Positions 9,572 to 53,202 of a stretch of DNA of 64,000 nucleotides are shown here, one piece after another. How positions within the stretch are numbered: position 1 is the first letter of the stretch; every line of letters begins with the position of its first letter. The notes under the pieces were generated by a model. The model searched no databases and was not told the origin of the DNA. It saw nothing but the letters and a program-made list of their open reading frames with translations. Source of the DNA: Candidatus Levyibacteriota bacterium (GTDB lineage Bacteria > Patescibacteriota > Microgenomatia > Levybacterales > UBA12049). Location of the stretch: contig JBDRBE010000001.1 of the NCBI GenBank assembly GCA_043823085.1, positions 47,267-111,266 on the forward strand. Direction: 5' to 3'. Made by a program: the position numbers and the translations under genes.

Positions 9572-11530
9572 TTATGGCGAATAATTAATAGTTATATCTT
9601 CTAATACCGGTGTCTGCGTTGAATCTTGAGTTGACAAATATGCCTTATATTTAAAACAGCGGCCAGGATTCTTATAATTTCCGTTCTCAATCACAGGTAT
9701 GGCAGATGACGTTGTAAAAAACGTTGTAGAGGTGGCGTCTGGACCAATAAAATTAAAAGTTGCTCCGCTGCAACTGCCGCCAACGGCATCTGCCACTGCG
9801 ACTTGGAATTTGATATTTGTTTGAGATGGTTTAAGAAAGTTGACTGAAAAGTTATTGAATGCTATCGAATAAGTGGCGTCAAATATCTTTGATTCAAATG
9901 TGCCCAGCGGTGATAATCCTCCTCCCGGTCCGCCAGCGATTATTTGAAACTCCTTACTTGCATTATCTGTCAAAATATAAGAATACGCATCTCCGTCGTC
10001 TTCAAGAACTGAAGCAATAGCATTTATACTTGTTGCTCCGTTGGGATTTGTTAATCCGCCGCAACGAAATGGAGGAAAGTCAGGAACTTTAGAAAGATTA
10101 AGAACCTGATATTGCTCCCCGCCAGATCCAACTATAATAACCATGTTTCCCGACACCGCCACTACTCCTTTGGGATTCATTGTGCCGGTATTGTAAACAC
10201 CAAGAGGTACTGGCAATGTTGTTATCTTACTGGAAGTATCGAGAATAAAAAAATCATTTTCCGGAGTTGACGCTTGTTTTGTCACTAAATAAACTCTAGT
10301 CCCGGTCGGATTAACAAAAAGGTCTGTTGCTTGTCGATCGTTAACATGCGCCGAAGAAACTTTTAAAATATTTAATGGATCGCTGATGTCATATATTGCC
10401 AACTGCTCCGTGGTGCTTGCTATGACTACATAAGCGTAATTTCCAATAACTATAACTCTTTTACCTGTTCCCGCGAGATCAATATGACCAAGCTCATTCC
10501 GAGATCCTGTTCTTTCTGAAAGATCAAACGTATAAAGCCTATTGCCAACCGTAACAAAACCAATATCTTTTCCAAGAATGCTGTTATACGCCACAAAAAC
10601 GCTAACGCCGCTTCCGCCTCCTGAACTGGCAAAAGTACCAACTTGGGCATAAGGTTTACTTGAAATCTCAATAATATCCACTGTTAATTTTGGGTGGTCT
10701 GATGTTAAATATGCATAAGAACTGTCTGTATAAATTCCATAAGTTTTATAGTTATTATAAGATGCATCATTTACAGCCACAGGCGGCGAAGAATTACTTA
10801 TTGCCATACTGTCCATAGAATTACCCGAAGCATTTCCTCCAGTTGTCGTATAAGCATGTCCTTGAACAGCGCTAATGGCTGTTGTTATACCCTGTCCAGG
10901 CAAGTCAAGCGGGTTAATCGAAAGATTGGGAGAACACCAATTTCCACTTCCGCCTGTGCCCAAAATTACTTCGCCTCCCCACATATTCGCAATAGTTACT
11001 CCATCTTTTATCCCAGAATTAAAATCGTCTTCTGTAGTTTCGGTATAAGTTATATTTGTATGGCGAGTAATATAAACCACCGAAGAAACAGTAGTTGCTA
11101 AGGGCGTATTCCAAGAAACATTAACTTGGACTTTTTTTGTTGAAGGGTCAATAATACCGCCGGTTAAAACAATCACACCGGATAAGTCCCTGTAAGCATC
11201 GCTAATAACTATCTGCCGAGTAAAATTATCAATTGTTTCCGAACCAGCAGAAAGAAACCAAGTTGTCCCCAAAGCTTCCGCATGAAAAGTTCCGTTAACC
11301 GCAAAATTGTTCCAATCTTTGTCGCGAACAATACGCACTGCTTCTTGAGCTTCTTTCACAAGCAGAGTTGCTCTTGTTCTTTGATCCTGCTGCGGTCTTC
11401 CTTCTTTTGAAGCCATAAAACTTGTAAAAAGAGCTGGTAAAAGGAGCGAGGCAACACCAATCGCCACTAAAAGTTCTATTAGCGACTGCCCTTTTCTCGA
11501 TTTAAAAATTGCAATCATCAAGCAATGCAT
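9572..11530 (-). CDS. large pilin-like protein (prepilin N-terminus plus LVIVD beta-propeller repeats), candidate pilus-associated adhesin
   Basis: 652 aa. N-terminus GQSLIELLVAIGVASLLLPALF is a prepilin-type signal. The central region has repeated YAYV.../LAIYDISDP/VYLV segments like LVIVD repeats. Confidence 0.6.
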   Translation of the reverse strand: MHCLMIAIFKSRKGQSLIELLVAIGVASLLLPALFTSFMASKEGRPQQDQRTRATLLVKEAQEAVRIVRDKDWNNFAVNGTFHAEALGTTWFLSAGSETIDNFTRQIVISDAYRDLSGVIVLTGGIIDPSTKKVQVNVSWNTPLATTVSSVVYITRHTNITYTETTEDDFNSGIKDGVTIANMWGGEVILGTGGSGNWCSPNLSINPLDLPGQGITTAISAVQGHAYTTTGGNASGNSMDSMAISNSSPPVAVNDASYNNYKTYGIYTDSSYAYLTSDHPKLTVDIIEISSKPYAQVGTFASSGGGSGVSVFVAYNSILGKDIGFVTVGNRLYTFDLSERTGSRNELGHIDLAGTGKRVIVIGNYAYVVIASTTEQLAIYDISDPLNILKVSSAHVNDRQATDLFVNPTGTRVYLVTKQASTPENDFFILDTSSKITTLPVPLGVYNTGTMNPKGVVAVSGNMVIIVGSGGEQYQVLNLSKVPDFPPFRCGGLTNPNGATSINAIASVLEDDGDAYSYILTDNASKEFQIIAGGPGGGLSPLGTFESKIFDATYSIAFNNFSVNFLKPSQTNIKFQVAVADAVGGSCSGATFNFIGPDATSTTFFTTSSAIPVIENGNYKNPGRCFKYKAYLSTQDSTQTPVLEDITINYSP

Positions 11531-12037: not shown

Positions 12038-13090
12038 TTATCTCGCACCGACTTGCCCAATTAAACCATATATTGGAGCAATTATCGAAATCATCATTGC
12101 CCCAACCAAAATTCCGACAATTACAAGCATTACCGGTTCCAAAACAACCGTAAGTGTTTTTAAAGTACTTGAAACTTCATTGTCAAGATATTCCGCTATG
12201 TCCTGCATTGATTTTTCTAAAGTTCCTGTTTTTTCTCCGGCCTCAATAATTTTTATCATGATGCTGGAAAAAACATCTTTTCTTTCTTTAAAACCTTCCG
12301 ACATTGGTCTTCCTGATAAAACTGTTTCTTTTGCATGAGCTATCGCCTTGGAAACATCTGACTTCAAAACAACATCTTGAGCCAATTCTAAAGCGCTATT
12401 TATTGTAATACCTGAAGCCAAAAGAAGATAAAGGCTTCTAGAAAACCGCGTCAAATCAATTTCTTTAATAAGTTTTTCAACTAAAGGCAGGGAAAAAACA
12501 ATATTGTAAACAAGACGTTTTTGCGCTCGATACAAAAGAATAAACCCAAAAACTACTCCTACTGTTGCAAGAATAATTGGAATAGTTTGATGAAGAAGAG
12601 CATCTGAGGCAAAAATAAGAATTTTTGTCGGAAGAGGTAATGAGATTTTTAATTTTAAGAAAACCGACGAGATTCTAGGAATAACGACAACCAACATTAA
12701 TAGCATTATTCCTGCAAAAACAATAAAAACCAAAACCGGATAAATAAGAGCGCCTTTTACCCTGCCTATAAATTCAATATCTTTTGTAATCTGCTGTTTT
12801 AAATCTTTTAAGGTAATATCAAGTGTTCCGGCCTCCTCCGAAGCCTTAATAATGTTTATCATAACCTTATCAAAAACATTTGGAAAATTAGAAAACGATG
12901 AATAAAGATGTTTGCCTTCGGCAAGATCATCTTGCACTGCTTCTAAAATTTTTTTTGTATTTCCTTTTGAACCTTCCATAAGAGATTGAACTGTTTCAAG
13001 AATAGGAATTCCGGCGTTAAGCATTGTAGCCATATTGCTTATTAAATTAAGTTTCTCGCTATTTGAAATGGAAATATTTTGATTATTCAT
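12038..13090 (-). CDS. pilC: type IV pilus / T2SS platform protein PilC (GspF family)
   Basis: 350 aa, 3 TM. Two GspF repeats with G..L...M......F..........EAGE..G.L motifs (IKASEEAGTLD; IIEAGEKTGTLE). Confidence 0.85.
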   Translation of the reverse strand: MNNQNISISNSEKLNLISNMATMLNAGIPILETVQSLMEGSKGNTKKILEAVQDDLAEGKHLYSSFSNFPNVFDKVMINIIKASEEAGTLDITLKDLKQQITKDIEFIGRVKGALIYPVLVFIVFAGIMLLMLVVVIPRISSVFLKLKISLPLPTKILIFASDALLHQTIPIILATVGVVFGFILLYRAQKRLVYNIVFSLPLVEKLIKEIDLTRFSRSLYLLLASGITINSALELAQDVVLKSDVSKAIAHAKETVLSGRPMSEGFKERKDVFSSIMIKIIEAGEKTGTLEKSMQDIAEYLDNEVSSTLKTLTVVLEPVMLVIVGILVGAMMISIIAPIYGLIGQVGAR

Positions 13091-14769
13091 AACGACTCTA
13101 CTTTTGTAACTCTTAGAATTTCTTCAATTGTTGTAACTCCTCTAGCAACTTTATCCAAACCATCATCTAACATAGTTGTCATTCCTTCATTAATTGCTTC
13201 TTTGGCAAGGATGTCGGAATCGTTTTTTTCGGTAATTAACTTTCTTATTTTTTCCGATGTTTCAATAATTTCAAAGATACCAAGTCTTCCGACATATCCT
13301 GTAAAATGACAGATCTTACAACCTTTTCCATGACAGGCTTTAATCGTTTCGCTTTCTCCAAAGTGTTTTTTAAAATCACTTTCTGAAAGATTTTTAAGAA
13401 TTTCGTTTCTATCAAGTGTTATCTCTTCTTTACAAGAGTCGCAAATTTTTCTAATTAATCTCTGTGCGACAATAACAGTAATTGTCGAGGCAACCAAAAA
13501 AGGCTCGACTTTCATATCAATAAGTCGAGGCAGGGCTGTTGCGGCATTGTTGGTATGAAGCGTTGAAACTACTAAATGTCCCGTCAATGCGGCATTAACG
13601 GCAATACCGGCAGTTTCCGTATCCCTTATTTCTCCGACAAAAACAACATTAGGATCTTGTCTTAGAATAGAACGAAGACCATTGGCAAAAGTCAAGTTTG
13701 TCTTAACATTCACCTGAATTTGATTAACACCTTTTATTCTGTATTCAACCGGATCCTCTATGGTTGTAATATTTTTTTCTCGGGTGTTTAAGATTTTTAA
13801 AATTGCATAAATAGAAGTTGTCTTTCCCGAACCTGTAGGACCGGTTGATAAAATCATGCCGTATGATTTATTGATGGCTGAGTTAACTTTTTGAAGATCC
13901 TTTTGGTTCATGCCAAGATCGAGAAGCGAAAACTCCCGAGAATGAGAAGATAAAAGGCGCAATACAACCTTCTCGCCGTCTGCAATTGGAACTACCGAAA
14001 CTCTCAAATCAAGATTGTCATTATCAATTGCCATCCGCATTTTACCGTCTTGAGCGCTTAAATGCTCATCTGTTCTAAGCCTCGATAAAACTTTGATTCT
14101 TGTTACAATTCTGTCATGAAGCACCTTCTCTACCGTCAAAACATCATGTAAAATTCCATCTATTCTAAACCTGATTAAAGAATCTTTTTCTTGCGGCTCA
14201 ATATGAATATCCGAGGCTTTATCATGATAGGCATAGGTTATTAAAAGATCGACTATTTTTATAATTGGCGCGTCATCCAAAACGCTATTAACGTTGCCTA
14301 TTTCTTCTAATAATAATTCATCAAAAGTCTTTTGCAAATCTTTACGGTAAAATTGCAAAGTGTTTTCGATATCTTTTTCTGTCGCAAAATAAGGAATAAT
14401 TTTTTGCCCTGTTTTTTTAGAAATCACAGTAAGGATTTCCGAATTTGAAGGATCATCCATGGCAAGCTTTACCCCATCGTTATCCCTGGCAAAAGCAATA
14501 ACTTTGTATTTTCGGGCAATTCTTTCCGGAACAATATTAAAAATATTGTCAGGAATTGTGATTTTGGAAAGCGTGACAAAAGGGCATTTCAAATAGTTTG
14601 CAACCAAGAGTCCTAATTTTTCATCGCTAATAAGATCTTTTTCTATTATCGCCTCCCGTAAAGAGGCTCTGGAATTTTTGGCAACTACAATCAGTTCATC
14701 AAGTGTTTTTTGGTCTACAATTCCACTTTGAATCAATAACGCCTTAAGCGAATCATCGGGCAGGATCAT
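13087..14769 (-). CDS. pilB: type IV pilus assembly ATPase PilB (GspE family)
   Basis: 560 aa. Walker A GPTGSGKTT. GspE N-domain and the C-terminal tetracysteine cluster (CDSC...CHGKGCKIC). Confidence 0.9.
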   Translation of the reverse strand: MILPDDSLKALLIQSGIVDQKTLDELIVVAKNSRASLREAIIEKDLISDEKLGLLVANYLKCPFVTLSKITIPDNIFNIVPERIARKYKVIAFARDNDGVKLAMDDPSNSEILTVISKKTGQKIIPYFATEKDIENTLQFYRKDLQKTFDELLLEEIGNVNSVLDDAPIIKIVDLLITYAYHDKASDIHIEPQEKDSLIRFRIDGILHDVLTVEKVLHDRIVTRIKVLSRLRTDEHLSAQDGKMRMAIDNDNLDLRVSVVPIADGEKVVLRLLSSHSREFSLLDLGMNQKDLQKVNSAINKSYGMILSTGPTGSGKTTSIYAILKILNTREKNITTIEDPVEYRIKGVNQIQVNVKTNLTFANGLRSILRQDPNVVFVGEIRDTETAGIAVNAALTGHLVVSTLHTNNAATALPRLIDMKVEPFLVASTITVIVAQRLIRKICDSCKEEITLDRNEILKNLSESDFKKHFGESETIKACHGKGCKICHFTGYVGRLGIFEIIETSEKIRKLITEKNDSDILAKEAINEGMTTMLDDGLDKVARGVTTIEEILRVTKVESL

Positions 14770-16914: not shown

Positions 16915-19632
16915 TTATCTAATTTGGGGATAATGACATTTTTTCCACTTTTTCTTACTTCCGCACCAACAAGGATCGTTGCGGCCCAATTTTCTGCTCT
17001 GTGCATCCGAATTCCTACTTTCCGAATTCCCATTCGACATGTGGGAAGCTGATTTTTTTACATCCGTTTTAATCGACGGTTGTTGTGGCGCAACTTGTAC
17101 TGAAATTTTATAAATTCTGTGGACGATCTGGTCATCAATTGCCGACATTAATTGTTCGAACATTGTAAAAGCTTCATTTTTATATTCTACCAATGGATCG
17201 CGTTGACCATAGCCCCGAAGTCCGATTCCCTGACGAAGATTTTCTATAGCATCTAAGTGATCCATCCATAAATTATCAATAACCGAAAGCATCACAAACC
17301 GCTCAATTTGTCTTGTTAAATCGCTACCCATTTGCTCTTCTCTTTTTTGATAAATATCCAAAGAAACTTTTGAAAGAAAATTTATTTTTTCATCCGTTTC
17401 TAATAACTGCTCAAGTTGTTTTGCAAGTTGTTTTTGCGATAATTCGTCAAATGGAATAATGGTTGAAAATTCTTCAACAATTTTTTCGTCAGGTAATTTA
17501 TCTACCTCATAATTTTGTACGCTATTAACATTAACAATTGCCGAAATAATATTGTTAATTTTATTAAATATTTCCTCTTTTAGTGAATTTTGCTCTGATG
17601 CTTTTTCGTCCAAAGGACGATCAGCCCTTGGCTGAGATACCTCTAGTACTTTTCTTCTTGCTTTGTAAATTATTTCTCTTTGTTTGTTTAAGACATCGTC
17701 ATATTGAACTAAATGCTTTCTAATGTCAAAATTAAATCCCTCGACTTTAATTTGCGCCTGTTCTATCGCTCTTGACACAACCGGATGTTGTAAGGGTACG
17801 TCTTCTGGCATATTAAATCTTGTCATTAAACCGGCAATTCTGTCTCCGCCAAAAAGTCTCATAATCTCATCGTCTAACCCAACAAAAAATCTTGAAACTC
17901 CGGGATCTCCCTGACGGCCGGAGCGGCCCCTTAACTGATTATCAATTCTTCTCGACTCATGACGCTCTGTTCCAATAACATAAAGTCCTCCTAAATCCAC
18001 AACCTCCTTGTGTTTTTTTTCCCATTGTTCCCACTCCTTTGTTCCTCTTTTTTCCCTGCCATCCTCAAATTTTGGACTATCACCGCCCAAAATAATATCA
18101 ACACCACGACCTGCCATATTAGTTGCAACTGTGACTGCTCCCTTAACGCCTGCCATCGCCAAAATTTCTGCTTCTCTTTCGTGATTTTTAGCATTCAAAA
18201 CCTCATGTTTTATTCCACGTCTTCGTAACAACTCGGAAATAATTTCATTTTTATCAATAGCTGTTGTTCCAACTAATATTGGTTGTCCAATTTTATGCGC
18301 TTCTTCTATTTCGAGAGCCACTGCAGATAATTTTGCCCGTCCTGTTTTATAAACCGCGTCGGAATTATCAACTCTTATCATTTTTTTATTAGTCGGAACA
18401 ACAACAACATTAAGTTTATAAATTCTATGAAATTCCTCCGCTTCTGTAAGTGCAGTTCCGGTCATTCCCGCCAGTTTCTCATACATTCTAAAATAATTTT
18501 GTAAAGAAACCGTTGCTAAAGTTTTTGATTCCCGTTGTATCGGTACTCCTTCTTTTGCTTCTATTGCTTGATGAAGTCCTTCAGAAAGTCTTCGTCCTAT
18601 CATCAAACGACCGGTAAATTCATCGACTAAAATTACCTGATTATCTTTGACAATGTAATCTTTTTCTTTTTGGAAAAGAGTTCTTGCTTTTAGCGCTGCT
18701 TCTAAATGATAAACCGTATCAAAGTCTCTTTCATAAATGTTGGTAACACCATACATTTTTTCAATTTTTGCAATCCCATGATCGGTTAAATGAGCTGTCC
18801 GTAATTTTTCATCAACTTTGTAATCAATACTTGACGTTAACTTATCAACTAATTTTGAATATTCATAATATTTTTCCGATGGTTCGCTTTGCGGCGCGGA
18901 AATAATATGGGGAGTCCTTGCTTCATCAATCAAAACCGAATCAACTTCATCAACTATGGCAAAATTATGTCCTGTTTGAACAACCTCGGGAATACTTTGA
19001 GCCATATTATCTCTTAGATAATCAAAGCCAAATTCCGAATTAATGCCATAAATAACATTTGCCTGATAAGCTTCTTTTCTTGTAATTGGTCTTAAATGAA
19101 CTAGTCTAAAATCTGTTGTATCTTTATTGTGGAACGACGGATCAAAAATAAAAGATTGATCGGAAATAATTGAAGAAACAGAAATTCCCAAAAGATTAAA
19201 AATAGACCCCATCCAACCGCAATCTCGTCTTGCCAAATAATCGTTAACTGTCACCAAATGAACACTTTTGCCAGTTAAGCTGTTAAGATATAATGCTGGA
19301 ACTGCCGACAAGGTTTTTCCTTCTCCTGTTTTTTGTTCTGCAATTTTTCCCTGCGAAAGAACAATCGCCGCCATTAGCTGTACATCAAAATGTCTTTGAC
19401 CCAAAGTTCGTCTGGCCGCTTCTCTTACAAGTGCAAAAGTCTCCGGGAGTATTAAGTCTAAAGATTCTCCGTTTTCAATTCTTTTACGAAAATCTTCTGT
19501 TTTTTTTAGAAAATCTTTTTCTTTTAATTTTAAAGTTTCTTTCTCAAAAGAATTTATTTCTAAAACAATGGGTTTTAATTTATTTATTTCTTTTTCGTTA
19601 TTACTAAATATTTTATTTAAAAAAGAAAACAT
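16915..19632 (-). CDS. secA: preprotein translocase ATPase SecA
   Basis: 905 aa. DEAD-like motor domains. C-terminal zinc-binding tail CWCGSKKKWKKCH. Confidence 0.95.
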   Translation of the reverse strand: MFSFLNKIFSNNEKEINKLKPIVLEINSFEKETLKLKEKDFLKKTEDFRKRIENGESLDLILPETFALVREAARRTLGQRHFDVQLMAAIVLSQGKIAEQKTGEGKTLSAVPALYLNSLTGKSVHLVTVNDYLARRDCGWMGSIFNLLGISVSSIISDQSFIFDPSFHNKDTTDFRLVHLRPITRKEAYQANVIYGINSEFGFDYLRDNMAQSIPEVVQTGHNFAIVDEVDSVLIDEARTPHIISAPQSEPSEKYYEYSKLVDKLTSSIDYKVDEKLRTAHLTDHGIAKIEKMYGVTNIYERDFDTVYHLEAALKARTLFQKEKDYIVKDNQVILVDEFTGRLMIGRRLSEGLHQAIEAKEGVPIQRESKTLATVSLQNYFRMYEKLAGMTGTALTEAEEFHRIYKLNVVVVPTNKKMIRVDNSDAVYKTGRAKLSAVALEIEEAHKIGQPILVGTTAIDKNEIISELLRRRGIKHEVLNAKNHEREAEILAMAGVKGAVTVATNMAGRGVDIILGGDSPKFEDGREKRGTKEWEQWEKKHKEVVDLGGLYVIGTERHESRRIDNQLRGRSGRQGDPGVSRFFVGLDDEIMRLFGGDRIAGLMTRFNMPEDVPLQHPVVSRAIEQAQIKVEGFNFDIRKHLVQYDDVLNKQREIIYKARRKVLEVSQPRADRPLDEKASEQNSLKEEIFNKINNIISAIVNVNSVQNYEVDKLPDEKIVEEFSTIIPFDELSQKQLAKQLEQLLETDEKINFLSKVSLDIYQKREEQMGSDLTRQIERFVMLSVIDNLWMDHLDAIENLRQGIGLRGYGQRDPLVEYKNEAFTMFEQLMSAIDDQIVHRIYKISVQVAPQQPSIKTDVKKSASHMSNGNSESRNSDAQSRKLGRNDPCWCGSKKKWKKCHYPQIR

Positions 19633-21976: not shown

Positions 21977-24256
21977 TTATGCAGTTTCTACTCCAAATAA
22001 ATCAATTTTTCCGCCGCAATATTTAATAATAATATTACACGCTTCTTGTAAGACTTTTTCTACCATAAAAGGTGCAATATCATAAACTCCATCAACATTT
22101 ATATATAAATTTTTTGTTTTTACCTCTACTGCAGTTCTTTTTGCATCGCGATAGTTAAAATCCATATTATATCCGCCAATTTTATCAAAATATGCAATTT
22201 CTGTTTCTCTATATACTGTTGGTTTTGCGTCTCCTAAAAGTAAAATTTCTTCATCGTTTTTTGCAAATCTTAAAACGGTTGGAAATTCTATTTTATCGAG
22301 ATCAAATGCGCCAACCGAAATATGATGCTTCATTACAATTAAATTGTATGCATCTACGCAAGTATTGATATTATATAAACCCTTATTTAATGCAACTCTT
22401 CGCAAAAGCGCCTCGGGGCTTGGACGCCTTGAATGCCAATCAACTTTCATTTCTTTATATAATCTTCTGTAACTTATAATCTCCGGATATTGACCAAGTT
22501 TCTCTGTTGTTAATCCATTAAGCGAAGAAAGCAATTCTTCTTTTTCTTTTTCCAAACCCTCATTTGATTTTTCAATACTGACGCCTTTTATAATTGCTAT
22601 ACCAATTGAAATCGAAGGAAACCTATTTTTTAGCTCTTTACTAATTGAAAAGACCTTTAGATTATTAAATATTTTCAACGAATCTTTTTTCTCATCACTA
22701 CTTAAATGATATATATCATTTAAGTAAATATCCTTGAATCTTTTTTGGACGAATTTTTTATCCAGAGATAAAATTAACCAGCCAGCTTTAGGACCGTGAT
22801 CTTTACCGATTAATGAAAGATAAATTGCAGAGAATGCTTCTTTTGAAGAAACTTCTAATTCCTTTGCTAATTCATAAAGATTTTTTTGAAAATCTTGGGC
22901 GGTCCATTTTTTATCAAGTTCCAATGAAACTTTTTCCAAAAACTTTTTTTGTTTATCGGATAAACTCTTTGCAGTTTTGGGTATAGTTTTACTGACAGAA
23001 AATTTTTCCGATTCCGGAGCAAATTTTTCAACCCAAATTCTTGCATATTTTGCCCATTCTTGGAGTCCTTTTTTTTTAATCACGTCTTCCATATTCGGCA
23101 TCTGTATCCATTGGGCAAGAACTGAAAAACGAATTTTTGGCGGTTTTTTAAACTTGTCTATTTGGGATAATTCAAAAGTCCTTGCCAAATCATTATCGCC
23201 CTTATTAAAATATGCCTCTGCAGCTTTTTGATATTCATCTAATAAATTTGGAATTGCTAATGTACCAACCGGATTGAATTCTATCGCTTTTTTATAATCA
23301 GTTTTCGCAAATAAAAATCTTGCAATTTCTGGCGGTAAAAGATCAGTTAATTCTCTAGCTTTTAAACCCAAACCTTTTGAAGTACCCATTTTTTTACCGC
23401 CAATAAGAAAAAATTCATAAGGAAGATTAAAAGGATTTGGATAATTAAAAATTTCTTTGCATAATTCTTTTGCAATATCTCTTGAACCGCCGGCCGATGA
23501 ATGATCTTTTCCTGCACCCTCAATTGTCACTCCCAATACCTTCCAATGCGCCGGCCAATCAACTTTCCAAGGTAATTTTCCATTCCCGTCAAACGGACTA
23601 ATTTTCCCCGAGTATCCGCATCCTTTTGCCCATTTAACCATTTCCGGTTCACAAATATAGGAAACTTCCCTGCCGTCCCATTTGTAAACGCGAGTTGTGC
23701 CAATTTTTCCGCAATGCTGGCAAATGACTTGCAAAGGAAGCCATCCTTTTTCTTTTTTCTTGCTTCCCGAAACTTTTTGATAAATATCTTGAATTTTATC
23801 TGCATTATCTAAAGCAATTCTTACAACCTCATTGAATTTACCTTGATGATACATATCCCACGATGATAAAAATTGCGCTGAAACTCCTAAATCTCTTAAA
23901 ACTTTTTGGAAATCTTTGGCAAAATAATCGGCAAAACTTGAATAGCCTTTTTCGGGAGATGGAGCACTGCGAAGAGGAATACCAAGATATTTCTCGAAAC
24001 TTGATAAGTCTTGCGGCAATCCATCAATAGGATCAAAATCATTAAAAATGTATGTCCATTTAACCTCTTTTCCGGCATCTTTAATAGACCTAAATAATAT
24101 GTCATGAATCAGAGGCCCTCGCAACGAACCGACTGTTGCATAACCCGATGGAGTAAACATATCATCTACCCAATAATGTTTATGATTTCCAGATGAAATT
24201 ATTTCTTTGGTAACTTTATCCGCCCAAAACATATACTCGAATTGATTATAATACAT
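21977..24256 (-). CDS. lysS: class I lysyl-tRNA synthetase fused to a C-terminal B3/4 (PheT-like) tRNA-binding domain
   Basis: N-terminus WADKV...TPSGYATVGSLRG (degenerate HIGH), a Cys-rich insertion with the LPWKVDWPAHW motif, and a KMSKS-like GKKMGTSKG. The C-terminal roughly 230 aa carry VDAYNLIVMKHHISVGAFDLDKI, matching the B3/4 signature VDxTNYVMLExGQPLHAFDLDKI. Confidence 0.8.
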   Translation of the reverse strand: MYYNQFEYMFWADKVTKEIISSGNHKHYWVDDMFTPSGYATVGSLRGPLIHDILFRSIKDAGKEVKWTYIFNDFDPIDGLPQDLSSFEKYLGIPLRSAPSPEKGYSSFADYFAKDFQKVLRDLGVSAQFLSSWDMYHQGKFNEVVRIALDNADKIQDIYQKVSGSKKKEKGWLPLQVICQHCGKIGTTRVYKWDGREVSYICEPEMVKWAKGCGYSGKISPFDGNGKLPWKVDWPAHWKVLGVTIEGAGKDHSSAGGSRDIAKELCKEIFNYPNPFNLPYEFFLIGGKKMGTSKGLGLKARELTDLLPPEIARFLFAKTDYKKAIEFNPVGTLAIPNLLDEYQKAAEAYFNKGDNDLARTFELSQIDKFKKPPKIRFSVLAQWIQMPNMEDVIKKKGLQEWAKYARIWVEKFAPESEKFSVSKTIPKTAKSLSDKQKKFLEKVSLELDKKWTAQDFQKNLYELAKELEVSSKEAFSAIYLSLIGKDHGPKAGWLILSLDKKFVQKRFKDIYLNDIYHLSSDEKKDSLKIFNNLKVFSISKELKNRFPSISIGIAIIKGVSIEKSNEGLEKEKEELLSSLNGLTTEKLGQYPEIISYRRLYKEMKVDWHSRRPSPEALLRRVALNKGLYNINTCVDAYNLIVMKHHISVGAFDLDKIEFPTVLRFAKNDEEILLLGDAKPTVYRETEIAYFDKIGGYNMDFNYRDAKRTAVEVKTKNLYINVDGVYDIAPFMVEKVLQEACNIIIKYCGGKIDLFGVETA

Positions 24257-24840: not shown

Positions 24841-25758
24841 TCAATGACCTCTAGTAAGACGGTCCAATCTCTTTTTGTAAGCAGATAAAACCTTATCTTT
24901 ATAATCTAAAGGGTGAAAAGCTAGCAAATGGTCGGAAATAATTTCTTTTGTTCGATGTTTTTTTATCGAACGGAGTTGTATTTTTTTTGCAAGTGCCTCA
25001 AACGCCCAAAAACGCAGAACCGGACATTCCGCATGATTCCGCGCAGCAATCTGCGTAGTTCCACGCTCAAGCGCATTTGGCAGAAATTTTCTAACCCATG
25101 AATTTACAGCAACGAATTTTTGATAAGTATTGCCCCGATTAAATACCGGCATGAGCTGGGCAAGTTCATGTGCACCGTATAAATTCTGCATTTCTTTTGG
25201 AAGCAAAATAGCGTCTTCATCAATTAAAAAATTTAAACAAAATTTATCTTTAATATCTTTATCATTTCTTCCCCTATGCTTTCCTAAAATCTTTAAAAAA
25301 ATAATAAGCAATAACCTTGTCAGCCATAAAGTATGTTTCTTTGCAATAATAAATAAATCAATATCATCATCCTTTTGCGAATTCTTCATCGATAGGGCAC
25401 CGCTAATGCCAATAACCTGAACCGTTGGAATATAAGAAAGACGAGAAATTATTTTTTTCGCTAAGCGGAATTTTTCATTGCTTTCTTTTTCCTTTTTTAA
25501 TCGTTTACTGACAATGTCTCCTCGATTTCGTAAGCAGTAGAACCCGTCCTTCTTGACAATAAAATGAGTAAGATTGGAGAGTTCCATTTCTAGCCTTACA
25601 CTTAACCTTACACCCTTGGGGTGGAAAACTAGATTTTCCGATGAATCATTTATTAAAAATCGCCAAATCTCATCTTTTGTCAGGGGATAATCAAAAACAT
25701 CCGAATAACTAATGGTTTTTAAAATTGCTTTCTTTATCTGCGAGGTACTTTCAATCAT
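24841..25758 (-). CDS. nucleotidyltransferase-domain protein (Pol-beta-like superfamily)
   Basis: 305 aa. GISGALSMKNSQKDDDIDLFII fits the GS...DxD nucleotidyltransferase signature. Confidence 0.45.
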   Translation of the reverse strand: MIESTSQIKKAILKTISYSDVFDYPLTKDEIWRFLINDSSENLVFHPKGVRLSVRLEMELSNLTHFIVKKDGFYCLRNRGDIVSKRLKKEKESNEKFRLAKKIISRLSYIPTVQVIGISGALSMKNSQKDDDIDLFIIAKKHTLWLTRLLLIIFLKILGKHRGRNDKDIKDKFCLNFLIDEDAILLPKEMQNLYGAHELAQLMPVFNRGNTYQKFVAVNSWVRKFLPNALERGTTQIAARNHAECPVLRFWAFEALAKKIQLRSIKKHRTKEIISDHLLAFHPLDYKDKVLSAYKKRLDRLTRGH

Positions 25759-41942: not shown

Positions 41943-41992
41943 AAGGATCCATATTATACAAAAATGTCAAAGACCCTGAGCTTGCCGAAATG

Positions 41993-42063
41993 TCGGGGTG
42001 CTGGGAATTGAACCCAGGCCTTACGCACCCCATGCGCAAATACTTCCGTTATACTACACCCCG
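41993..42063 (-). tRNA. tRNA-Pro (anticodon GGG)
   Basis: The minus-strand 71-nt sequence folds as a cloverleaf. Acceptor stem CGGGGUG/CACCCCG with the bacterial tRNA-Pro C1:G72 pair. D-loop GG. Anticodon stem UGCGC/GCGUA with loop A-U-GGG-G-U. T arm CUGGG-UUCAAUU-CCCAG. Discriminator A. No encoded CCA. Confidence 0.75.
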
Positions 42064-42110: not shown

Positions 42111-43187
42111 ATGGGCAGGACACCAAACGCACAAAAAACTCAAAGCCCCAATGGCCCGGCAGAATCATCTCAAAAACTAGAAGCAGTACGCATTGCCATG
42201 GATCAGATTGAAAAACAATATGGCCGCGGTTCAATTATGCGATTTGGACAGGCTGGAGAAAAATTTGACGTTTCGGTCATCTCCACAGGTTGTCTTCCCT
42301 TGGATTTGGCGCTTGGTGTTGGCGGAGTGCCAAGGGGAAGAATCATTGAGATTTTTGGTCCCGAGGCTTCCGGAAAAACTACAATTTGTTTATCAATTAT
42401 TGCCCAAGCCCAAAAGCATGGAGGAGTGGCGGCATTCATTGACGCCGAACATGCACTTGATCCATTATGGGCAGGGACAATCGGCGTCAAACTCGATGAT
42501 CTTTTAATTTCCCAGCCCGATACCGGCGAGCAGGCTTTGGAAATTGCCGAAAGCCTTATTCGTAGCGGCGGAATTGATGTTTTGGTTATTGATTCGGTTG
42601 CGGCTCTTGTGCCGCGCGCCGAAATCGAGGGAGAAATGGGAGACTCAATGATGGGACTTCAAGCGCGTCTTATGTCACAAGCCCTTCGAAAATTAACCGG
42701 AGTAATTTCTAAATCCAAAACAGTCTGTATTTTTACCAATCAATTACGTCAGAAAATCGGCGTAATGTTTGGTAATCCCGAAACAACAACAGGTGGTTTG
42801 GCGCTTAAATTTTATTCGTCAGTGAGAATGGATGTTCGAAAAATAGAAACTCTTAAAGACGGCGACAGGGTTGTTGGTTCGCGCCACAGAGTAAAAATTG
42901 TTAAAAATAAAGTTTCTTCCCCTTTTAGAATTGCCGAGTTTGATGTGACGGGCGAAAGCGGAATTTCGCGCGAAGGCGGAATTTTGGATGTTGGAGTTGA
43001 AATGGAAATTATTCAAAAGAGCGGCGCATTTTTGCGATTTGGAGACTTGATGCTTGGTCAGGGGAAAGAAGCGGCAAAAATGCTTCTTAAAGAAAAAAGT
43101 GATATTGCCAAAAAGATTGTTGACGAAATTTTGAAAAAAAGCAAAACCTCCGGTTCTCCTGTTGTTGTCGGCGCAGAAGAAAAATAA
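42111..43187 (+). CDS. recA: recombinase RecA
   Basis: [12 protein letters not shown], Walker [10 protein letters not shown] and the complete RecA core. 358 aa. Confidence 0.95.
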
Positions 43188-51378: not shown

Positions 51379-51919
51379 TTTCTTTCTTAATTTTTTCCAT
51401 TATCTCTTTATGAATTTCTCCAACCGATTTTTCCCCATCAACCTCAATTAAAATTCTTTTTTTACGGTAAAAGTCCAAAACCGGCTCTGTAAATTTATGA
51501 AATGAATGGATTCTTTTTCGAATAGCCGCCAAGGTTTCATCGTCGCGCGATTCGCCGTTTCGATAAGAAAGTCTCCATAACGCTTCTTTATCGGAAACGT
51601 TTAAATAAACGACGTCGTTAACATGATTTTCGAAAGCTTTTGCCTGACCTAGCGTTCTTGGAAAACCATCAAGAATATAACCTTTTTGATATTCATCGCG
51701 CTTAAGATAAGTTGAAACGATTAAAAGTGTTTTTCTGTCAGGAATAAGATACCCGGCATTCATAACTTCTTTAATGTAACGACCAAGTTTAGAATGTTCC
51801 TTGGTCAAACTTCTGAAGATGTGGCCGGTTGAAAGATAAGGAACATTAAACTTTTCGGACAATAAATTCCCTTGCGTTGATTTTCCCGAACCTTGAATAC
51901 CAATTAAAATAATCTTCAT
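51371..51919 (-). CDS. adk: adenylate kinase (short form, no zinc lid)
   Basis: [32 protein letters not shown] ... GFPRTLGQ. Confidence 0.85.
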
Positions 51920-53202
51920 TTTAAAAAGCCTTCGTAATTTCTCATTACCAGTTGCGACTCAATATTTTTAACTGTTTCCAAAACTACCGAAACGACAATC
52001 AAAATTCCTGTTCCTCCCAAAAGAAGTGTTTCAACCCCAGTAATCATTCTACCAATTGTAGGAAAAATTGCAATTGTTCCCAAGAAAATTGCGCCGGCCA
52101 ATGTAATCCTTGTTAAAATATAATTTAAAAAATTGGCTGTTGGAATACCCGGTCTAATGCCCGGAATAAACCCGCCGTACTTTTGTATTTCTTCGGCTAT
52201 TTTTTTTGGATTAAAAATTACTGCCGTATAAAAATAAGTAAAACCAACCACTAAAATAAAGTAAAGAACGTTATAAATAACTCCTTCCGGATTAAAAAAC
52301 GAGGTCATACCAACTGCCAGATTATGCAAGCCAGGATTTTTTGATGCAGTTAAATAATTAGCAATTAACGATGGCATTAACACCAGGGAAACGGCAAAGA
52401 TAATCGGGATTACACCCGCCTGATTTAATCTAAGAGGAATATGTGTTGATTGCCCCCCATACATTTTATTACCTCTTACTCTTTTGGCATAATAAACCGT
52501 AATCCTTCTTGTGGCCTCATTAATGATTATGATTGAGGAAATAACAAGAAGAGCAAGTCCTAAGAAAACAAGAATGTTAAAACTGTTTTCGGCAGTTGTT
52601 GTCGAAGCGGTTTGACCAAAAGCAATCGGTAGTCTTCCGACAATTCCCGCAAAAATAAGAAGGGATATTCCGTTCCCAATACCTTTTTCCGAAATCAACT
52701 CTCCAAGCCAAACCAAAAGCATCGTTCCCGCTGTCATGGTAAGAATAAATGAAACAAGACCAAGAGGCTGTAAAGTCGTAATAATATTTTGACTCCGAAG
52801 AAGCGCGTACATGCCAACTGCCTGCATCATTGCAAGCGGAACTGTAATCATTCTTGTATATTGATTTATTTTTTGACGGCCACTCTCTCCTTCTTTGGAT
52901 AACTCTTCAAGCTTTGGAATAACCATCGTTAAAAGCTGCAAGATAATTGAAGCATTGATATAAGGATTAAGCCCCAGGGCCATAACCGAAAAATTTGCCA
53001 GCGTCCCTCCGGAAAAAATATCCAAAAGACCTAAAAATTGATTCTGGGAAAAAAGTGCTTTGAGGCTGACTAGATTTACTCCCGAAACAGGAATATGAGC
53101 AAAAAGTCTAAAAACAACAAATATTGCCATCGTAAACAGAAGTTTTTTTCTAACATCTTCTGCTTTAATGGCATTTCTAAAAATCGAAAGATAATTTTGC
53201 AT
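51916..53202 (-). CDS. secY: preprotein translocase SecY
   Basis: 428 aa, 10 TM helices, SecY signatures. Confidence 0.95.

Follow-up and report, generated by a model that had tools for sequence, protein, structure and literature searches.

A CtdA-like B3/4 module of putative editing type on lysyl-tRNA synthetases of Microgenomates-type bacteria

Hydrolytic editing domains are known from several aminoacyl-tRNA synthetases, with CP1 in IleRS, ValRS and LeuRS, N2 in ThrRS, INS in ProRS and the editing domain of AlaRS as examples, and free-standing paralogues such as AlaX and ProX/YbaK exist as well. The lysyl-tRNA synthetase (LysRS), which alone among the synthetases occurs in two unrelated classes (LysRS1 and LysRS2 hereafter), is not known to carry a hydrolytic editing domain in either class. 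Here I describe a gene on the minus strand of a 64,000-nucleotide (nt) stretch of a Candidatus Levyibacteriota genome (contig JBDRBE010000001.1, positions 47,267 to 111,266; hereafter the window), which encodes a class I LysRS that ends in a B3/4 module related to the canavanyl-tRNA-Arg deacylase CtdA. The same module is found on class II LysRS at the same type of locus, and I argue that it probably acts in editing.

The closest described systems differ from this gene in their architecture. CtdA, with 231 amino acids (aa), is a B3/4 protein that stands on its own (PDB 9f7e, 9mkl; PMC10018355, PMC12449066), set apart from PheRS by a helical insert (PMC12449066), and Hauth et al. state that ArgRS is without a known editing domain (PMC10018355). 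Class II LysRS edits homocysteine, homoserine and ornithine pre-transfer, in its synthetic site (PMC5370406). For the LysRS of Microgenomates, the one appended domain that Mukai et al. 2017 (PMC5370408) mention is a B2-like OB domain, found on a few of these enzymes.

A class I synthetase and its appended module

The gene is one uninterrupted open reading frame (ORF) of 759 aa, with an ATG start, zero internal stops and its stop codon at 21977-21979. The N-terminal body (aa 10-514) matches Pfam tRNA-synt_1f (PF01921) over aa 10-366 with E 8.8e-90 (301.7 bits, cutoff 27), Anticodon_2 over aa 418-509 with E 4.6e-6, and the NCBIfam equivalog for class I LysRS, TIGR00467 lysS_arch, over aa 9-508 with 355.2 bits against a cutoff of 147.55; over aa 10-507 it can be aligned end to end with P. 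horikoshii LysRS-I (PDB 1IRX, E 1e-74). After a tether of about 15 aa follows a module of 230 aa (aa 530-759), in which Pfam B3_4 (PF03483) is detected at aa 596-748 with E 1.2e-20 and 74.2 bits against a gathering cutoff of 29.3, covering positions 2-174 of the 174 in the profile. A first-pass annotation, made from the letters of the window, had proposed such a fusion of class I LysRS and B3/4, outside the textbook architectures, and had quoted the motifs WADKV, TPSGYATVGSLRG, LPWKVDWPAHW, KMGTSKG and VDAYNLIVMKHHISVGAFDLDKI. All five are found in the ORF, and Pfam, NCBIfam and the 120 best database homologues, every one of which carries both Pfam domains, agree on the fusion. The gene is thus predicted to encode the class I lysyl-tRNA synthetase of this Microgenomates (Ca. 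Levyibacteriota) bacterium, and NCBI holds the identical protein under the name 'lysine--tRNA ligase [Candidatus Levyibacteriota bacterium]'. The homologues have a consensus that opens with MFWAD, at Met9 of the ORF, so that translation may in fact begin from the ATG at 24232-24230 rather than from the one at 24256-24254 (region 24230-24256, minus strand).

The two signature motifs of the window copy deviate from those of its relatives. Nearly all homologues have H[IV]G[SA] as their HIGH-type motif, whereas the window copy has TVGS, with Thr in place of the first His, a form that the motif census finds in two of about 127 homologues with a recognisable pattern, the window copy and one more; the Thr codon is ACA, more than one step away from any His codon. 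The KMSKS-type loop reads KMGTSKG, unique among 191 sequences in the census, where the homologues mostly have KMSSSKG. K289, S293 and G295 of this loop are invariant in an alignment (A2) of 109 LysRS1+module proteins, nearly all of full length, of which 98 come from a whole-protein search and 11 from a census with the module profile. A Thr at the position of the His in the HIGH motif can be tolerated, as TrpRS has TIGN.

Alternatively, an apparent fusion may stem from an overlooked stop codon or frameshift, from chimeric assembly or from the merging of neighbouring genes, and the locus L081, where LysRS2 and module are two overlapping ORFs, indicates that split versions or sequencing frameshifts do exist. 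I consider such an artefact next to impossible for the present gene. The frame is continuous here and in 75 LysRS1 and 5 LysRS2 loci from independent GTDB genomes, the 120 best homologues (56-69% identical) each have both domains at a query coverage of 95-100% (99-100% in 115 of them), and the module is under strong purifying selection. A frameshift or missed stop, which the first-pass annotation had named as a possible cause, was ruled out on these grounds.

The first-pass annotation had further called the C-terminal domain PheT-type. Its membership of Pfam B3_4 stands, but the module is closer to CtdA than to PheRS beta. A sequence search of solved structures puts CtdA at the top with PheRS beta behind, and a search with the family profile gives CtdA at 4e-18 versus PheRS beta at 3e-8. 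CtdA is only 14-18% identical to the module. The PheT equivalog TIGR00472 (pheT_bact), which has a cutoff of 402.65 bits, matches a local stretch of 70 aa with 19.9 bits, and Pfam finds none of the other PheT domains (B1/B2/B5-B8) in the 759-aa protein. A PheT-type origin was rejected in favour of a CtdA-type one, since the structure and profile searches both rank CtdA first. The appended piece is an entire CtdA-type unit, helical insert included, with the B3/B4 fold and the CtdA-type insert contained in about 230 aa, and its motif SRRPSPEALLRR is invariant or almost so in alignments A1 and A2 and common to CtdA, where it reads S-A-E-A-L-r-k-R.

An AlphaFold model of aa 526-759 is highly confident (predicted local distance difference test, pLDDT, 97.3; predicted template modelling score, pTM, 0.93). 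In the full-length AlphaFold2 model two confident bodies are joined by residues 515-524 with a pLDDT below 50, at an overall pTM of 0.68, which argues for a flexible tether and not for a fixed two-site machine. The two-body model with its disordered linker would fit a tethered, semi-autonomous unit that can be used from two attachment points.

The closest stand-alone relatives of the module score 163-272 bits against the module profile, CtdA-1 only 67-69 bits. As these relatives outscore CtdA-1 and include an archaeal member, they may perhaps represent the uncharacterised 'CtdA-2' clade. In the neighbourhoods of distant stand-alone relatives (L082-L086) I found no link to lysS and no functional hint, save for one archaeal context.

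One module on two classes of LysRS

When the GTDB species were scanned, each represented by a single genome, at least 194 species genomes were found to encode the module. The 80 best loci by module similarity, all from independent genomes, belong to metagenome-assembled genomes (MAGs) of the Microgenomates type (Levy-, Gottesman-, Davies- and Roizmanbacteria), together with many implausibly labelled records. In 75 of the 80 loci, LysRS1 and module form a continuous frame of about 750-800 aa with the module at the end. Labels such as 'uncultured Gammaproteobacteria', 'Lysobacterales', 'Methylomirabilota', 'Eisenbacteria' and 'Sulfotelmatobacter' are attached to Microgenomates-type loci that nevertheless show the same synteny (L003-L006, L009, L012, L013, L016, L019, L027, L028, L036 and others), and all such labels on the deposited MAGs are probably wrong taxonomy.

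Searching with the module only, I found the same module at the C-terminus of class II synthetase fragments, whose best NCBIfam hits (lysS_bact/PRK00484) identify them as LysRS2. Full-length LysRS2+module genes of 732-755 aa are present in 5 of the 80 GTDB loci (L034, L043, L044, L052, L078), and for L034 and L078 Pfam gives an OB anticodon domain, a class II core and B3_4; the whole collection comprises 25-26 LysRS2-linked modules. Across the class border the modules can be very similar, with 88% identity between the LysRS2-linked P0143 and the LysRS1-linked L046, and 82% between the LysRS2-linked P0121 and the LysRS1-linked L032. In a neighbour-joining (NJ) tree, 128 modules (103 LysRS1-linked, 21 LysRS2-linked) form one mixed clade with about 11 partner switches, a rough NJ/Fitch count that should be read as 'several', as the trees are distance-based and fragments are included.

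The similarity between LysRS1- and LysRS2-linked proteins opens precisely at the start of the module, at (K)PE(I/L)F(S/T)I, and extends to the C-terminus, and downstream of the genes of both kinds, as in the window, Ham1, SerRS and SecA follow in the same order and orientation. As homology begins at the module boundary and the downstream synteny is identical, the catalytic body has been exchanged between class I and class II, in one direction or the other, with module and locus retained. By the Rosetta-stone argument, a module that is retained across exchanges of the body should have a job tied to lysine or tRNA-Lys and not to the fold of the synthetase.

The arrangement in L081 (2647-4699) consists of a LysRS2 of 455 aa and a separate module ORF of 232 aa (P0129) that overlap by 14 nt, with SecA downstream. 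The P0129 module is 69% identical to that of the window, and the two ORFs represent either a natural split gene or a frameshift in the linker.

The module is constrained at least as strongly as the essential catalytic body. In alignment A2, of which the first 98 rows are free of module-based selection and the last 11 were picked by module profile, 84 of 234 module positions (36%) are conserved at 90% or more, versus 104 of 520 body positions (20%). Compared with the window copy, the modules of 72 loci average 67% identity and the bodies 52%, the former being biased upward because these loci were chosen by module similarity.

The pocket and the proposed function

The residues lining the pocket of CtdA, N105, G116, E118, C166, Q173 and I189 (PMC12449066), were mapped by profile alignment to 9mkl and correspond to N638, G649, F651, N697, D704 and N720 of the window protein. 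An Asn of the N105/N254 type positions the catalytic water, and mutation of N105 or G116 inactivates CtdA, neither residue being substrate-specific (PMC12449066). N638 is invariant or near so, with N in 111 of the 112 LysRS1-linked modules, and the G649 position holds G in 109 of them; the two residues that are essential in CtdA are kept in more than 97% of the LysRS-linked modules. The scaffold N and G are thus the same, whereas the specificity residues of CtdA (E118, C166, Q173 or E, I189), among which C166 is strictly conserved in CtdA-1 (PMC12449066), are replaced by F651, N697, D704 and N720.

This signature goes along with the partner. The 112 LysRS1-linked C-terminal modules have N-G-F-N-D-N (F in 106, N697 in 99, D in 110, N720 in 100), and so have the 25 LysRS2-linked C-terminal modules (F in 21, N in 16, D in 24, N in 16). 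All six ArgRS-fused N-terminal modules carry N-G-E-C-E/Q-V/I, which is the CtdA signature, and among 90 stand-alone relatives the positions vary (Y/F, C/T/S, D, F/V/L). A pocket that co-varies with the amino acid of the partner fits an amino-acid-recognising editing site better than a generic tRNA-binding appendage.

Compared with the PheRS editing site (E. coli R244, N254, H265, F267, G318, E334), only N254 and F267 are conserved. The retention of editing-site residues, which the first-pass annotation had proposed to check, is therefore partial, as the equivalents of N254 and F267 are kept and R244, H265 and G318 are replaced by Y, G and D. With H265 and G318 of PheRS missing and four of the six CtdA pocket residues different, the module forms a distinct LysRS-associated subfamily of putative deacylases. 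Canavanine is an unlikely substrate for the LysRS-linked module, because the pocket differs and the partner is LysRS and not ArgRS; for the same two reasons orthology with CtdA, in the sense of canavanine editing, was rejected.

I consider it more probable than not that the module is an active editing domain for tRNA-Lys, a tethered post-transfer deacylase that would act on mischarged tRNA-Lys. In this scheme LysRS would charge tRNA-Lys, the tethered module would sample the 3' aminoacyl end while the product departs, and the ester bond would be cleaved if the residue is a non-cognate look-alike of lysine, with Lys-tRNA-Lys spared. This would be post-transfer editing held beside the synthetase and not a rigidly integrated second active site, and the tether, together with the two attachment points (on LysRS1 the helical C-domain, on LysRS2 the C-terminus of the catalytic domain), suggests capture on release rather than an intramolecular shuttle of the CCA end. 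Thialysine, 4-oxalysine, ornithine, arginine and homoarginine are candidates for the rejected amino acid by analogy; CtdA removes the oxa-analogue of arginine, which makes the oxa- and thia-analogues of lysine analogous candidates. What I observe are architecture, fold, conservation, pocket signature, distribution, the sharing across classes and the synteny, whereas I infer that the module hydrolyses, that it targets tRNA-Lys and which amino acids it might reject. The earlier idea of an editing or tRNA-handling function appended to LysRS thus seems to be supported in part.

A different possibility is that the module is a non-catalytic tRNA-binding appendage, which would make LysRS bind tRNA-Lys more tightly, for instance by holding the acceptor end, in the manner of OB/B2 or EMAP-type domains. 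RNA-binding add-ons are common among synthetases of the candidate phyla radiation (CPR), one class II relative (P0251) has tRNA_bind beside B3_4, and the B3/4 fold is known from non-hydrolytic settings such as LRRC47 on pre-40S ribosomes and the C-terminal domain of TilS; a PheRS-beta B2-like domain is present on a few Microgenomates LysRS (Mukai 2017, PMC5370408). I nevertheless think an appendage unlikely, as the (near-)invariant N638, G649, F651 and D704 line the aminoacyl pocket in CtdA and PheRS, the water-positioning Asn essential in CtdA is kept, and the pocket signature follows the specificity of the partner, Lys versus Arg.

The module could also be an ordinary trans-editing factor for another tRNA, incidentally fused to LysRS, that would act on canavanyl-tRNA-Arg, or on Tyr-tRNA-Phe to compensate for a reduced CPR PheRS. 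CtdA is the closest solved structure and acts stand-alone, without its synthetase (PMC10018355), a flexible tether would permit action in trans, and PheRS-beta of CPR bacteria is frequently without domains (Mukai 2017, PMC5370408). However, E118, C166, Q173 and I189 of CtdA have become F, N, D and N, and H265 and G318 of PheRS have become G and D; the partner in this clade is LysRS, of either class, with the module kept across repeated body exchanges; and modules with the true CtdA signature are the ones fused to ArgRS. All this makes a function for another tRNA quite improbable.

Slightly less probable still is a lysine-linked role of another nature, such as amino-acid sensing, regulation of LysRS, or hydrolysis of Lys-tRNA-Lys or lysyl-adenylate that controls the supply for non-translational uses. 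The polar pocket (N, D, N) could bind lysine, and the extra C-terminal HD and DUF2000 domains of some relatives hint at a more complex chemistry. Against this, the B3/4 family offers no precedent, hydrolysis of the cognate product would be wasteful for energy-poor CPR cells, and the closest characterised relatives are proofreading deacylases.

Several points weigh against an editing function for tRNA-Lys as proposed here. Since four of the six pocket residues differ, the substrate of CtdA cannot be transferred to the module, and the clustering of conserved residues at the pocket reflects a sequence mapping to CtdA and PheRS. The conservation of the module in the 72 loci is inflated by the selection on module similarity, the full-length AlphaFold2 model, with its pTM of 0.68, gives no fixed geometry between the two active sites, and both signature motifs of the window copy, TVGS and KMGTSKG, are atypical. 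LysRS1 is reported to be intrinsically selective against many lysine analogues, so that the need for editing is not obvious. No second LysRS and no ArgRS is encoded in the 64-kb window, and the status of this gene as the sole LysRS applies to these 64 kb only. Finally, I found no description of a LysRS-B3/4 or ArgRS-B3/4 fusion in the full-text library that was searched; the words 'fused', 'fusion' and 'LysRS' do not occur in the CtdA papers, and LysRS or ArgRS fusions are not mentioned in the Nat Chem 2026 deacylase paper.

In its widest form, the proposal would make these the first LysRS, of both classes, with a dedicated post-transfer editing domain. The N-G-F-N-D-N subfamily would serve against a lysine antimetabolite on tRNA-Lys, at one locus and through repeated exchange of the body, and would constitute, together with the ArgRS fusions, a cis proofreading family for basic amino acids, on two synthetases that have been regarded as having no editing domain. 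On this wide form I am evenly divided.

The profile census also returned other fusions. The six CtdA-like modules that are N-terminal on full-length ArgRS (P0266, P0300, P0308, P0325, P0328, P0333) look like putative cis-editing domains for ArgRS, and P0266 has two tandem module copies ahead of ArgRS. An N-terminal module is also found on a class I LysRS (P0327) and on a class II synthetase of the D/K/N type (P0287), in both cases with a CtdA-like pocket (D/E, C, E), and they represent another type of LysRS fusion, independent of the first and distinct in its pocket. Further domains follow the module in P0246, P0215, P0217, P0251 and P0072, and in L036, L038 and L040 (~200 extra C-terminal aa). 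The architectures are LysRS2-module-DUF2000, with DUF2000 matching PDB 2GAX Atu0240; LysRS2-tRNA_bind-module-HD, P0251 having both tRNA_bind and B3_4; and LysRS1-module with an HD-like tail, which in L038 has an HD...D motif and matches no Pfam family at E<0.001. P0130 (338 aa, on a 2.6-kb contig) joins a UvrC RNase H-like fragment (aa 1-72) to a complete module (aa 175-327), and may be a gene-calling or assembly artefact or a further fusion partner.

The locus and its comparison with known systems

The LysRS gene lies in the housekeeping gene order GreA-LysRS-Ham1-SerRS-SecA (coordinates of features in Table 1). Near the gene I found no tRNA-Lys and no regulatory RNA, the single RNA gene found being a tRNA-Pro(GGG) at 41992-42063. 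The surroundings are otherwise ordinary, with genes for T2SSE/T2SSF (type II/IV secretion or pilus ATPase and platform protein), SecA, SecY, RecA, RpoA, RNase Y, TsaD, transketolase and a UvrD/PD-(D/E)XK helicase-nuclease. Two minus-strand ORFs, 24841-25758 (305 aa) and 9572-11530 (652 aa), match no Pfam family at E<=1e-5, and the 305-aa ORF is kept upstream of GreA in at least three related loci. Of the 32 bins of 2 kb in the window (1-64000), 31 have a negative GC skew (cumulative -4.15), AT skew is mainly negative, and among the 54 ORFs with 150 aa or more about 42 are on the minus strand; PMC7143001 reports an unusual strand composition disparity in a Microgenomates genome.

Table 1. Features of the LysRS-module gene and its surroundings, in window positions
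Feature	Position	Strand	Basis
Whole gene, 759-aa class I LysRS with CtdA-like B3/4 module	21977..24256	minus	uninterrupted ORF, Pfam, NCBIfam, database homologues
Class I LysRS catalytic (Rossmann) domain with Cys4 Zn insertion, aa 10-366	23159..24229	minus	PF01921 E 8.8e-90; 1IRX alignment
HIGH-type signature motif TVGS, aa 41-44	24125..24136	minus	motif census; codons read
KMSKS-type signature motif KMGTSKG, aa 289-295	23372..23392	minus	motif census; 1IRX alignment
LysRS-I helical anticodon-binding and C-terminal domain, aa 367-514	22715..23158	minus	Anticodon_2 aa 418-509; 1IRX alignment; AlphaFold2 helices
Flexible tether, aa 515-529	22670..22714	minus	low pLDDT; poorly conserved columns in alignment A2
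CtdA-like B3/4 module of aminoacyl-tRNA deacylase type (putative), aa 530-759	21980..22669	minus	Pfam B3_4 = aa 596-748, nt 22013-22471
Conserved motif SRRPSPEALLRR, aa 609-620	22397..22432	minus	alignments A1 and A2; CtdA alignment
VDAYN, aa 634-638; N638 = CtdA N105 = E. coli PheRS-beta N254	22343..22357	minus	CtdA alignment
Pocket G649-A650-F651; G649 = CtdA G116/PheRS H265, F651 = CtdA E118/PheRS F267	22304..22312	minus	alignment
N697...NYRD704; N697 = CtdA C166, D704 = CtdA Q173/PheRS G318 (pocket specificity wall)	22145..22168	minus	alignment
N720 = CtdA I189 (pocket residue)	22097..22099	minus	alignment
Ham1/RdgB gene, abuts LysRS stop codon	21365..21976	minus	conserved LysRS-module/Ham1/SerRS/SecA order
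Housekeeping genes	12038-14769	minus	
Housekeeping genes	16915-19632; 51916-53202; 42111-43187		

The proteins are already public and plainly annotated as lysine--tRNA ligase, and a synthetase with an appended domain of putative editing type is in itself of a known kind. That the module stays fixed while LysRS bodies swap suggests a pressure from the amino-acid pool, in the form of a lysine look-alike, and not a weakness of one active-site architecture, and raises the question which non-cognate amino acid threatens the decoding of lysine in ultra-small scavenging bacteria. The observations would extend the newly discovered CtdA family past canavanine, and a compact, portable, tRNA-Lys-linked putative proofreading module could serve genetic-code engineering. 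For the field of synthetase fidelity they should be of interest, with an unusual evolutionary twist.

The window protein has a Zn insertion, a KMSKS-type loop and a helical anticodon-binding domain, as has P. horikoshii LysRS-I (1IRX; TIGR00467), from which it is set apart by 245 additional C-terminal aa and by the Thr at the first His of the HIGH-type motif. The B2-like LysRS of Mukai et al. come from the same lineage and likewise have a PheRS-beta-related piece at the C-terminus, in their case a B2/tRNA_bind OB fold versus the B3/4 found here, and P0251 combines both. The B3/4 editing domain of PheT, which gives a synthetase its own hydrolytic site for post-transfer editing, has in common with the module its membership of Pfam B3_4, the Asn N254 (N638 here) and the A-F-D segment with F267 (F651 here). 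CtdA is free-standing and acts on tRNA-Arg, whereas the module of the window is fused to LysRS. With the known editing synthetases the proposed function would share the same logic, in which a hydrolytic domain, fused in cis or free in trans, clears mischarged tRNA; here, however, the module swaps between two unrelated synthetase folds.

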